Shown here: positions 7,242 to 54,623 of the stretch, piece by piece | How the letters are laid out: each line of letters begins with the position of its first letter | Position numbering within the stretch: the first letter of the stretch is position 1 | Source of the DNA: Octopus vulgaris | Taxonomy: Eukaryota | Length of the DNA: 64,000 nucleotides | Direction: 5' to 3' | Assembly (NCBI GenBank): GCA_951406725.2 | Contig: OX597827.1 | Coordinates: forward strand, 46,376,001-46,440,000 | Program-made: the position numbers and the translations under genes | The notes under the pieces: model-generated | What the model was told of the DNA's origin: nothing | Databases searched by the model: none | What the model saw: the letters and a program-made list of their open reading frames with translations, nothing else

Positions 7242-7393
7242 CTGAAAGTAAAAAAAAGAATGCTCAGTACTTGGATTAGTGCTAATGTATTTTAATCTCG
7301 AGTTGTTATTCATTTTCGTGAGATTACTTGTCAAACGAAAAGTGATTACATGAAACTTGCCTGATGAACAAAAAAAGGCGAAACTCCAAAGTA

Positions 7394-13789: not shown

Positions 13790-13866
13790 TCAAAATGTGA
13801 CCGCGTATGTACCGTTGGCGATTTTTTTCCTCCGTCTTCCCTTCTTTGGATCTTTCCTTTTCCTAT

Positions 13867-13901
13867 GTTTCTGACGAAGAGCTCCGCTCGAAACGTTAAA
13901 C
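13867..13901 (+). ncRNA. Minimal type I hammerhead ribozyme
   Basis: GUUU-CUGACGA-A-GAGC-ucc-GCUC-GAAA-C-GUU|AAAC; self-complementary AACGUU stem III as in dimer-type Penelope HHRs. Confidence 0.75.
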
Positions 13902-13996
13902 CCTCCTTCTTTCCTTCTTTCCCGAGCGTCCAATAATACGATACTTGTTCCACGTCCCCGCGTTGTTGTTTTCTCTTTGTGTTTTCATGTTTGGAT

Positions 13997-18125: not shown

Positions 18126-18201
18126 TTGGGACAATTGTTTCGCTATTAATGAATTAAATGTAATATTACTTACAATAATCCATTTGTAGCTCTTCAGCCA
18201 A
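18126..18201 (-). ncRNA. Type I hammerhead ribozyme (sense to host pre-mRNA)
   Basis: UUGG-CUGAAGA-GCUA...UAGC-GAAA-CAAUU-GUC|CCAA on the minus strand. Confidence 0.85.
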
Positions 18202-18658
18202 GACTATCTGGATGAAATCCACTCAATCACACGCCAGATTTTACCATAACGATAAATACGCGTGCGGTTCAATTGATTACATCGGACGTTATAATTCAAA
18301 TGCCCCAACCAACAGCGCGCCAAACTCACACGGAAAACAAATACAGCATTTAGAAATAAATGCAGCATAATTATAATTAATTAATAAGGGTGAGAGAATT
18401 AGATACTAATTTAATAGTATATTTATTCCACACCAAGTGGCCTAGTGCTACGAGAAACCTGGATTATTATAATATTTTATAACATATTATAATATTTTCA
18501 CAAAATAAATATAAGAGAGTGGTCACTATATTGATCACTCTAGCACCAGTTAATCCAAAAGGTTTCAACCACGAAAATACATGTTTCCCATGAAAGCCAG
18601 TACGACTGTTAGCTCACACGGACAGGGCAAATAAAAAATAACAAAAATACAGATTATT

Positions 18659-18734
18659 TTGGGACAATTGTTTCGCTATTAATGAATTAAATGTAATATT
18701 ACTTACAATAATCCATTTGTAGATCTTCAGCCAA
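18659..18734 (-). ncRNA. Type I hammerhead ribozyme, G10.1>U variant (probably impaired)
   Basis: Same as the 18126 copy except position 18723, which breaks the first stem II pair. Confidence 0.7.
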
Positions 18735-19331
18735 GACTATCTGGATGAAATCCACTAAATCACACGCCAGATTTTACCATAACGATAAATACGCGTGCGG
18801 TTCAATTGATTACATCGGACGTTATAATTCAAATGCCCCAACCAACAGCGCGCCAAACTCACACGGAAAACAAATACAGCATTTAGAAATAAATGCAGCA
18901 TAATTATAATTAATTAATAAGGGTGAGTCGTACTGGCTTTCATGGGAAACATGTATTTTCGTGGTTGAAACCTTTTGGATTAACTGGTGCTAGAGTGATC
19001 AATATAGTGACCACTCTCTTATATTTATTTTGTGAAAATATTATAATATGTTATAAAATATTATAATAATCCAGGTTTCTCGTAGCACTAGGCCACTTGG
19101 TGTGGAATAAATATACTATTAAATTAGTATCTAATTCTCTCACCCTTATTAATTAATTATAATTATGCTGCATTTATTTCTAAATGCTGTATTTGTTTTC
19201 CGTGTGAGTTTGGCGCGCTGTTGGTTGGGGCATTTGAATTATAACGTCCGATGTAATCAATTGAACCGCACGCGTATTTATCGTTATGGTAAAATCTGGC
19301 GTGTGATTGAGTGGATTTCATCCAGATAGTC

Positions 19332-19407
19332 TTGGCTGAAGAGCTACAAATGGATTATTGTAAGTAATATTACATTTAATTCATTAATAGCGAAACAATT
19401 GTCCCAA
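19332..19407 (+). ncRNA. Type I hammerhead ribozyme
   Basis: TTGG CTGAAGA GCTA...TAGC GAAA CAATT GTC|CCAA; predicted cut after 19403; stem I extended by CAGAT/ATCTG. Confidence 0.87.
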
Positions 19408-19864
19408 AATAATCTGTATTTTTGTTATTTTTTATTTGCCCTGTCCGTGTGAGCTAACAGTCGTACTGGCTTTCATGGGAAACATGTATTTTCGTGGTTG
19501 AAACCTTTTGGATTAACTGGTGCTAGAGTGATCAATATAGTGACCACTCTCTTATATTTATTTTGTGAAAATATTATAATATGTTATAAAATATTATAAT
19601 AATCCAGGTTTCTCGTAGCACTAGGCCACTTGGTGTGGAATAAATATACTATTAAATTAGTATCTAATTCTCTCACCCTTATTAATTAATTATAATTATG
19701 CTGCATTTATTTCTAAATGCTGTATTTGTTTTCCGTGTGAGTTTGGCGCGCTGTTGGTTGGGGCATTTGAATTATAACGTCCGATGTAATCAATTGAACC
19801 GCACGCGTATTTATCGTTATGGTAAAATCTGGCGTGTGATTGAGTGGATTTCATCCAGATAGTC

Positions 19865-19940
19865 TTGGCTGAAGAGCTACAAATGGATTATTGTAAGTAA
19901 TATTACATTTAATTCATTAATAGCGAAACAATTGTCCCAA
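19865..19940 (+). ncRNA. Type I hammerhead ribozyme
   Basis: Same motif, 533 bp downstream of the 19332 copy. Confidence 0.87.
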
Positions 19941-53622: not shown

Positions 53623-54298
53623 TCCCTCTTGTCGCAATAAAAATGGCCGACAAGTACGTTAAGTTGCCTTTCTATTTGTTTGTACATTTGCTTTGTGAGT
53701 TAATCTTCCTAATACATGTCCACGATAATCTGTTGATTTATCCGTGAGACTGATAATCTGAAAATGGCTCATCTGAGAGGAAGAGAAAAAAAAGAACGAA
53801 AAAGAAGAAAGAAAGAAGGAAGGCAAAGAAGAAAGAAAGGGTGGATGGTAAAAAAAATACCAAATGAGAACGAGAGGCGCTGTCGAGATATGATTGAGAA
53901 AGAATGAAATCCTCTAATCGTACTTTGCTAGTGTTAGTAAACAGCTTAATGATGGTTTAGTCTATGTATCATTAATATATATTTATCTATTTACTTGTAC
54001 GTTACGCATTTGTTGGAAAATCGCAGTATATAGATATACAACTTAATTTCACAACCTTCACACATTCCAAAAAATAAATAAATAAATAACAACGATAATA
54101 ATATTAGTTATAAATAACTAATATATTATATAACGTAATAATTTCTCCATCGTCTTGACTTAACAACCCTCATCGTTTGTTTTTACTGTGTTATTCTTTT
54201 TGTTCTGTCTTTTACTGTTCTTGTTACCCCTTTTACCCCTCCGCAAAATATCCCAAATTTCATTGAATTTGCTTTGTGGGATGGACTGTTTCAACGAA

Positions 54299-54361
54299 TT
54301 CGCGTCTTGTCCTTACCTTCGAAACGCGGAGTAGACGACACAGGGACAACTGAAGAAGGGG
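54299..54361 (+). ncRNA. Candidate hammerhead ribozyme with non-canonical strand order (pseudoknotted)
   Basis: UUCGC-GUC|UUGUCC...CUUC-GAAA-CGCGGA...GGACAA-CUGAAGA-A-GGGG: all core motifs present and all three stems can pair. Confidence 0.5.
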
Positions 54362-54571
54362 AATATTCCTTGTGTTGTATGTCTTGTACTATGTTTTTTC
54401 ATTGTTTTAAAAAAAGTTCGTTTCCATGTTTTTGTTTTTATGTTTTCGTTTCTCATTGTGTTCAACGTTTTTTTGATGTCCTGCACCCATATATGCATGT
54501 ATATATACATATAGATGTAGGTATGTACATATATGTATGTATATATGCATATATTTATATATTATTTATAT

Positions 54572-54623
<52 letters not shown>

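Follow-up and report, generated by a model that had tools for sequence, protein, structure and literature searches.

A likely hammerhead ribozyme family of reversed strand order, with a predicted split core, in a non-coding Penelope-like repeat of Octopus vulgaris

The window studied here is a stretch of 64,000 nucleotides of Octopus vulgaris DNA (assembly GCA_951406725.2, contig OX597827.1, positions 46,376,001 to 46,440,000 of the forward strand). Near its end lies a TA-tailed segment, taken for repeat-like in an earlier note on this DNA, and it is a 5'-truncated copy of a dispersed repeat (54137-54618). The copy contains a motif with the letters of a hammerhead ribozyme. The features of the copy are listed below in window positions, with the evidence for each; the helices are predicted ones.

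54137-54618, + strand: 5'-truncated copy of the non-coding Penelope-like repeat, ending in a TA run (unit about 760-850 nt); blastn against a natural copy of the full unit, 82% over 531 columns.
54236-54240, + strand: 5' strand of helix IV, CCCCU, with 54357-54361 as predicted partner; strand pairing across copies.
54241-54279, + strand: hairpin V (54241-54247 with 54273-54279), directly between helix IV and stem II; pairing and double changes.
54280-54284, + strand: predicted 5' strand of stem II, GAAGG in the family and GAUGG, with one U.U mismatch, in the window copy; covariation.
54286-54292, + strand: 5' strand of helix P0, the equivalent of the stem I-II helix of types SGC and CSG; double change in 6 of 7 pairs.
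54299-54305, + strand: 3' strand of stem III, its last base being U16.1 (54305); register and covariation.
54306, + strand: N17 (C), with the cut predicted 3' of this base; base counts in 76 copies, and copy 5' ends clustering just downstream.
54307-54312, + strand: 3' strand of stem I; double change in 6 of 6 pairs.
54316-54320, + strand: 3' strand of stem II, CCUUC; covariation with the upstream strand.
54321-54330, + strand: core GAAA (G12-A15.1) and 5' strand of stem III; conservation and covariation.
54337-54343, + strand: 3' strand of helix P0, with one mismatch in the window copy relative to the family; covariation.
54344-54349, + strand: 5' strand of stem I; covariation.
54350-54356, + strand: core CUGANGA (C3-A9); six fixed positions kept in 72-76 of 76 copies.
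54357-54361, + strand: AGGGG after A9, predicted 3' strand of helix IV and, in the earlier note, a strand of stem II; pairing across copies, with a rival pairing.
54362-54618, + strand: U-rich 3' part of the element and its TA-rich end; sequence and family comparison.

The three segments that had been read as hammerhead strands are where they were said to be: UUCGCGUC directly followed by UUGUCC at 54299-54312, CUUCGAAACGCGGA at 54317-54330 and GGACAACUGAAGAAGGGG at 54344-54361. A descriptor of the reversed order (CUGANGA, GAAA and UH, with stems I-III in hammerhead register) matched the window only at this site, with runs of 8, 4 and 7 pairs in stems I, II and III. In 300 dinucleotide shuffles, searched on both strands, there was one loose match and none that was equally good. 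The motif does escape standard searches, as had been predicted for it: Rfam gave no match at gathering score over the whole window, and in 54100-54550, up to an E-value of 10, it gave no hammerhead match but matches to the TA run and weak, below-cut-off matches to CrcZ. The observed motif is real and well supported. Its boundaries had been drawn too narrowly, the conserved fold beginning about 63 nt further upstream, at 54236.

Copies of the repeat are dispersed in the genome in thousands. A DNA search returned 4,179 candidates, and the 40 that were scored comprise the window itself and copies at 91-94% identity. A loose pattern of the motif had 4,304 genome matches vs. 15 for the reversed control, and a pattern containing none of the core letters had 2,437 vs. 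4. The copies are truncated at the 5' end, end in TA runs, and occur as partial tandems of the 760-850 nt unit or as inverted pieces; the start of a short 3' extension was present in 24 of 109. Truncation at the 5' end, partial tandem and inverted copies, an extension of 30-40 nt and TA targets (here TA microsatellites) are traits of Penelope-like insertion (PMC8557442; this and most other papers cited here were available in part, and what we say of them refers to those parts). Among the frames listed there was no credible ORF in the repeat unit, and none joining a reverse transcriptase to GIY-YIG. Judged by these sequence traits, the window repeat is a non-autonomous Penelope-like element. 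Contigs of four sequencing runs, filed under four organism labels, also match the element (the match alone could be read, and for contigs only). A second superfamily has different stem sequences and the identical layout; its pattern gave 4,069 matches (84 in the control), some of them unrelated repeats or variants of the first superfamily, that of the window. At unit junctions in three loci (L023, L008, L029) the 3' extension stops at a word resembling a splice donor, which would be expected if the start of the unit held the 5'-UTR intron described for Penelope elements.

Conservation and covariation were assessed in an alignment of 76 distinct copies, whose loci were chosen by their flanks alone, with no core letters used. 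They came from the first 30 loci of the core-free pattern, from 40 regions picked for variety among 70 others listed, and from further fetched loci. The core proved to be kept in 820 of 836 cells and was complete in 62 of the 76 copies. Position N7 was free (A 52, U 23, G 1), and N17 was C in 32, U in 25 and A in 18 copies, never G, with one gap. Double changes occurred in 17 of the 23 predicted pairs of stems I and III and helix P0, tallies that count copies rather than independent events and were made without a tree or covariance model. Paired cells made up 88% in register vs. 40-50% after sliding, and in a control that keeps relatedness the filter was passed by 7 of the 9 variable pairs of stems I and III vs. 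33 of 1,093 other column pairs. Thus the copies that the earlier note had wished to see compared retain the core and carry compensatory changes in stems I and III, and hammerhead blocks in reversed, pseudoknotted order are an appropriate description of the motif. Three properties of a hammerhead are there: the core consists of CUGANGA, GAAA and UH, its N7 and N17 being free apart from the exclusion of G at N17; stems I and III keep their exact register to this core and show covariation; and a G10.1-C11.1 pair closes stem II beside G12, being G-C in 33 of 36 copies if the upstream strand supplies the G and in 35 of 36 if the strand after A9 does. We think it very probable that the motif is the conserved core of a hammerhead ribozyme family that is active, i.e. 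self-cleaving. Outside the model, columns 44 and 109 of the alignment A1 (54314 and 54374 in the window), a linker base and a base of the U-rich stretch, covary with four pair types and are 95% paired, which may reflect a possible extra contact of three pairs.

The strand that supplies G10.1 is a matter of inference. The stem II proposed in the earlier note, GGGG/CUUC, can be drawn as it was claimed; comparison of the copies favours other partners for both of its strands. The comparison covered the two non-coding superfamilies and a Naiad-type group, whose tail is nearly identical to that of the published Naiad_Ovul and Naiad_Obim and whose pattern has 423 matches in this genome and none in the control. 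Between the superfamilies the upstream stem II changes from GAAGG/CCUUC to GAGCA/UGCUC, with 95% of 180 cells paired and double changes in 3 of 5 pairs. GGGG/CUUC is likewise paired in 97% of cells in these two superfamilies, over 4 pairs and with a single double change, which lies between the superfamilies; there are no two-sided changes within the first. The Naiad-type group has 6 pairs in the upstream stem II vs. 2 in the GGGG/CUUC register (18 of 30 loci, counted at fixed offsets; the other 12 were dropped, their upstream part not being in register). Of the three-group alignment A3, in which the 7 Naiad-type rows are misplaced and 2 rows are truncated, the first 23 of 30 rows were used. 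Since CCUUC pairs upstream in all three groups and AGGGG closes a separate helix, the stem II of the earlier note is probably wrong as judged by covariation.

The separate helix is helix IV. When hairpin V was placed without using the strand after A9, that strand paired with the sequence abutting the hairpin in 87% of cells at shift 0 vs. 50-76% at shifts 1-3 (101 of 147 copies). Helix IV varies little in the genome, double changes being found at pairs 5-6 only, and in the Naiad-type group it consists of 3 pairs and a mismatch. In hairpin V 93% of 161 cells were paired vs. 35-50% when slid, with double changes at three pairs. These pairings predict an order that would begin with the 5' strand of helix IV, hairpin V, the 5' strand of stem II, P0, the 3' strand of stem III and the UH cut site, and would continue with the 3' strands of stems I and II, GAAA, the 5' strand of stem III, P0, the 5' strand of stem I, CUGANGA and the 3' strand of helix IV. 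Helix IV and hairpin V would thus bridge A9 and G10.1, which are adjacent in other hammerheads, P0 would hold stems I and II together, and the whole would amount to a type-CSG ribozyme circularly permuted between A9 and G10.1. Base-pair covariation gives such a split core, with stem II completed by the upstream strand, a good probability. Helix P0 covaries and sits where a helix joining stems I and II is expected in the split model, their contact in three dimensions being a prediction.

The main alternative is a plain type-SGC hammerhead. One extra A would then precede a GGGG/CUUC stem II, and the pairings further upstream would play an accessory or inhibitory part. It could work as a two-state switch, in which the upstream strand would hold CCUUC until displaced by the 3' strand. 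The high share of paired GGGG/CUUC cells and the double change between superfamilies speak for it, as do rough duplex energies, which differ between the two states by at most about 2 kcal/mol, and the tail of one Naiad from the spider section, which by eye reads as plain SGC. The first two pairs of this register (G-C and G.U) also persist in all three groups in the genome, so a short conventional stem II could still form here. However, the upstream pairing is Watson-Crick, longer, and covaries more; AGGGG has a partner in exact register next to hairpin V; and of the GGGG/CUUC register only 2 pairs are left in the Naiad-type group and none in the published coral and ctenophore tails and two further ones, where by eye the strand after A9 cannot pair with C11.1. 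Moreover, P0 falls where the stem I-II helix of SGC and CSG lies only if the upstream strand forms stem II; by eye, no conserved helix joining stems I and II was seen with stem II drawn as GGGG/CUUC. We consider the plain SGC reading unlikely. Two further pairings touch the same strands. Pairing of the upstream strand with the UUCCUU that follows the core is energetically possible and was rejected, its registers shifting between superfamilies; a local AGGGG/UUCCU hairpin, present in most members of the window's superfamily, is weak or absent in several of the second.

A full descriptor of the predicted split fold was matched by 18/30, 4/30 and 6/30 loci of the three groups, and by 0/30 Neptune-type loci and 0/29 metagenome loci taken as controls; the latter are the 29 matches of a metagenome scan for the motif, none of which passed the stem tests. 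The window copy itself fails the full descriptor because of the U.U pair in stem II. It also has the mismatch in P0, and it may be impaired. Minimum-energy folding of the window copy did not recover the pseudoknotted helices.

The 5' ends of the copies may be an indirect sign of cutting. They were mapped with chained matches from anchors placed some 110-135 nt 3' of the site, 95 of them for the first superfamily (taken from the first 90 of 5,485 places) and 70 for the second (of 217 matches). In the first superfamily 27 of the 73 copies at risk end at 0 to +19 after the predicted cut vs. 28 of 633 in ten other 20-nt bins; the corresponding numbers for the second are 13/50 and 32/466, the share of ends in the other bins being 4-7%. 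By distance from the cut, ends were found in 42/125 at 0 to +29, in 8/83 at -30 to -1 and in 16/141 at +30 to +59, and 3 of the 50 second-superfamily copies begin exactly at the predicted cut. Every subfamily contributes such ends, and the bases at which they lie vary, thus they do not come from one short master copy. The pile-up would fit a reverse transcriptase that copies the cut RNA up to its end, with slight trimming afterwards; the rival cause is stalling within the structure. In five loci (L063, L129, L152, L209, L259) inverted pieces beside copies likewise stop at most about 15 nt past the predicted cut.

Stalling is part of the reading that the motif descends from a hammerhead but has lost the ability to cut, and is conserved as a structured signal in the RNA, for instance one used by the reverse transcriptase. 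There is no direct sign of cleavage, the ends are spread over 20 nt rather than fixed at one base, 42 of the 95 copies of the first set extend beyond the site by more than 59 nt, and Penelope hammerheads often cleave poorly in vitro (PMC4209133). What makes this reading improbable in our view is that the fixed positions are precisely the catalytic ones, N7 and N17 drifting inside the allowed set, that the ends come once copying has passed the 3' strands of P0 and stem I and fall away at the predicted cut, and that some second-superfamily copies start precisely there.

The earlier note left open whether the motif assembles in cis or in trans. Assembly in cis is feasible, and because all helices can form within one copy, assembly in trans or as a dimer is not needed. 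A ribozyme whose activity required a dimer, or assembly in trans between tandem units, would resemble the minimal type I hammerheads of Penelope elements, for which dimers are the rule (PMC4209133); tandem and inverted partial copies are common here, and stem III of the window subfamily holds a CGCG palindrome. On the other hand, stem III has at least 5 covarying pairs and is not palindromic in other subfamilies, and SGC and CSG RNAs cleave in cis as monomers (PMC10085705), so we regard this idea as very improbable.

On the reading that we prefer, a hammerhead that cuts in cis, the transcript would be cut after 54306 to give a 3' piece with a defined 5' end. This piece would be a favoured template of a Penelope-type reverse transcriptase, likely provided by a Naiad element, and would be copied into TA microsatellites. 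The sequence, the copy number, the conservation, the covariation and the clustering of copy ends are observed; the fold, the cleavage and the mobilising protein are all things that we infer.

Naiads were reported to lack canonical hammerheads, with no structure given in the part of the report available (Craig, Yushenova, Rodriguez and Arkhipova 2021, PMC8557442), and eight of their families are marked there 'HHR_half_core', with a second half 35-50 nt off on either side. This remark fits the window motif, and Naiad_Ovul has both the remark and the fold. By eye, the split plan can be read in the published consensus tails of Naiad_Obim, Naiad_Ovul, three Acropora families, Naiad_Bfor and two further entries, in a subset of the 54 families that was not a systematic count and in which entry names were deduced from the next header and file order. 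In two published entries helix IV begins after 2-3 unpaired bases, and in the last of the two further entries its polarity is opposite to that in the window family. Five nematode tails read by eye as plain CSG; some of the other tails viewed showed no fit at a glance. In a spider entry, the one before Naiad_Sdum in File S5 of PMC8557442, the order is reversed and, by eye, a local hairpin lying between stem I and GAAA appears to serve as stem II, which here too is detached from A9.

Naiads and the window family have in common the TA target, 5' truncation, partial tandem and inverted copies and the 30-40 nt extension. Unlike Naiads, the window family has no credible ORF among the frames listed, and among the matches listed blastn found only TA-repeat matches between it and the Naiad-type tail. 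An ORF with N-terminal GIY-YIG and reverse transcriptase was not seen within 1,500 nt upstream in the 30 Naiad-type loci; upstream of this tail it is present in the published consensus alone. Descent of the non-coding window family from a Naiad is suggested by the shared RNA plan and the TA target, with no blastn similarity.

A Neptune-type family of the same genome was considered as the source of the motif and rejected, because its hammerhead is of type I (type I form in 20 of 30 loci, reversed form in none) and it has no similarity to the unit outside one inverted junction. It is a possible mobiliser of the repeat. At this junction (L251, G000:C1:18985000-18994400) a repeat copy is joined head-to-head to a 5'-truncated Neptune-type copy; this may be a template switch, in which case Neptune proteins may also mobilise the repeat. 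All 20 pattern-matching loci of the 30 (L338-L367) carry U in place of core A6 in their type I hammerhead, and one Neptune-type element (L359:1-2193 and about 2345-2390) encodes a reverse transcriptase by Pfam and, by eye, a GIY-YIG-like C-terminus.

Other observations in the window concern different sequences. On the + strand, 13866-13905 is a minimal hammerhead of type I, which carries one extra A and whose stem III is palindromic; it belongs to another TA-tailed Penelope-like family that is also seen beside repeat copies in three loci (L023, L038, L039). At 7361 and 28389, on the same strand, CUGAUGA shortly precedes CGAAAC, possibly in decayed minimal hammerheads. The region of about 18130-19940 is an inverted duplication of a tandem pair, a stretch of at least 127 nt occurring four times, twice per strand (18197, 18730, 19336, 19869).

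Hammerheads have been divided into the blocks S, G and C, which allow six permutations, and types SGC and CSG have been validated in vitro (Eckert, Friedrich, Weinberg and Weinberg 2023, PMC10085705). Type SGC was found only in metatranscriptomes, and apart from one weak GCS candidate no example in the genome of a known organism is given in the accessible text; CSG consists of two sequences, both metagenomic. Block C was assumed there to be uninterruptible, with the 5' strand of stem II within 1-2 nt after CUGANGA. If our interpretation is true, non-circularly permuted hammerheads would move from rare metatranscriptome RNAs to animal genomes, where they number thousands of copies, and the assumption that CUGANGA and the 5' strand of stem II are inseparable would fall. 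The same interpretation would give a testable answer to how Naiads spread without a canonical hammerhead, and would explain the 'HHR_half_core' remark. The role of hammerheads in Penelope-like transposition has been called unclear (PMC8557442), and the pile-up of insertion ends at the cut would be a genomic sign of such a role. CSG, SGC and split forms in one retroelement clade would constitute a natural series for the evolution of permutations. We give a moderate probability to the combined proposal that CSG, SGC and split hammerheads serve Naiads in several phyla, that the split form is a seventh architecture that is active, and that the cut sets the 5' end in a large part of the new insertions.

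It is instructive to compare the window family with the hammerheads described before. The strand order that the earlier note had thought to be new is that of type SGC, which was validated in vitro and cleaves in cis (PMC10085705). Like HRIMA-1 and its variants, the representatives of this type, the window motif has the cut-site block, the GAAA block and CUGANGA in this order and a pseudoknotted core, with a short linker between stems I and II (about 3-4 nt in the window superfamily, about 6 in the second and 1 in the Naiad-type group; about 3 nt in SGC) and an additional helix that links the two stems at their far sides, the latter being P0 only if the upstream strand is stem II. An intact block C, as in SGC, would leave the GGGG/CUUC stem with 4 pairs in the two superfamilies and 2 in the Naiad-type group. 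Unlike SGC, the window family is predicted to separate A9 from G10.1 by helix IV and hairpin V and to have its stem II strand upstream; its host is an animal retroelement present in thousands of copies. We do not file the family as plain SGC, the upstream strand being favoured. With CSG-1 and CSG-2 (PMC10085705) it shares the same cyclic order of strands, including the stem I-II helix, with the difference that the circle is opened between A9 and G10.1 and not between stem III and the stem I-II helix.

The type I hammerheads of Penelope and Neptune pseudo-LTRs and of non-LTR retrozymes (PMC4209133; bioRxiv 10.64898/2026.07.22.740005) resemble the window ribozyme in their place near the 3' end of the unit and in one extra base after CUGANGA, and their hosts likewise form non-coding tandem units. 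They are of type I, often minimal and dimeric (PMC4209133), and the window ribozyme is not; non-LTR retrozymes have a type I hammerhead in each tandem unit, and of these two features only the tandem units are found here. The PK hammerhead (Zhan et al. 2024, PMC11300833) also forms helix II by long-range pairing and has an extra helix named IV. That helix, unlike our helix IV, is the stem of the pseudoknot-forming loop, and the accessible text mentions no reversed order. The remaining literature consulted (PMC4209133, PMC3088659, PMC13725137, PMC10162972, PMC11300833 and two 2026 preprints) describes, in the parts available, short core insertions, type I retrozymes or a different pseudoknot form. 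A literature search that covered few subscription journals returned the term 'type-SGC' from one paper alone; neither an animal hammerhead of the SGC class nor one split between A9 and G10.1 was reported in what it returned. The order of the blocks is thus known, and the animal retroelement host, the link to Naiads and the predicted split core appear to be new. If true, the window family would represent a seventh natural hammerhead architecture, active in animals, in which A9 is uncoupled from stem II and bridged to it by two inserted helices.
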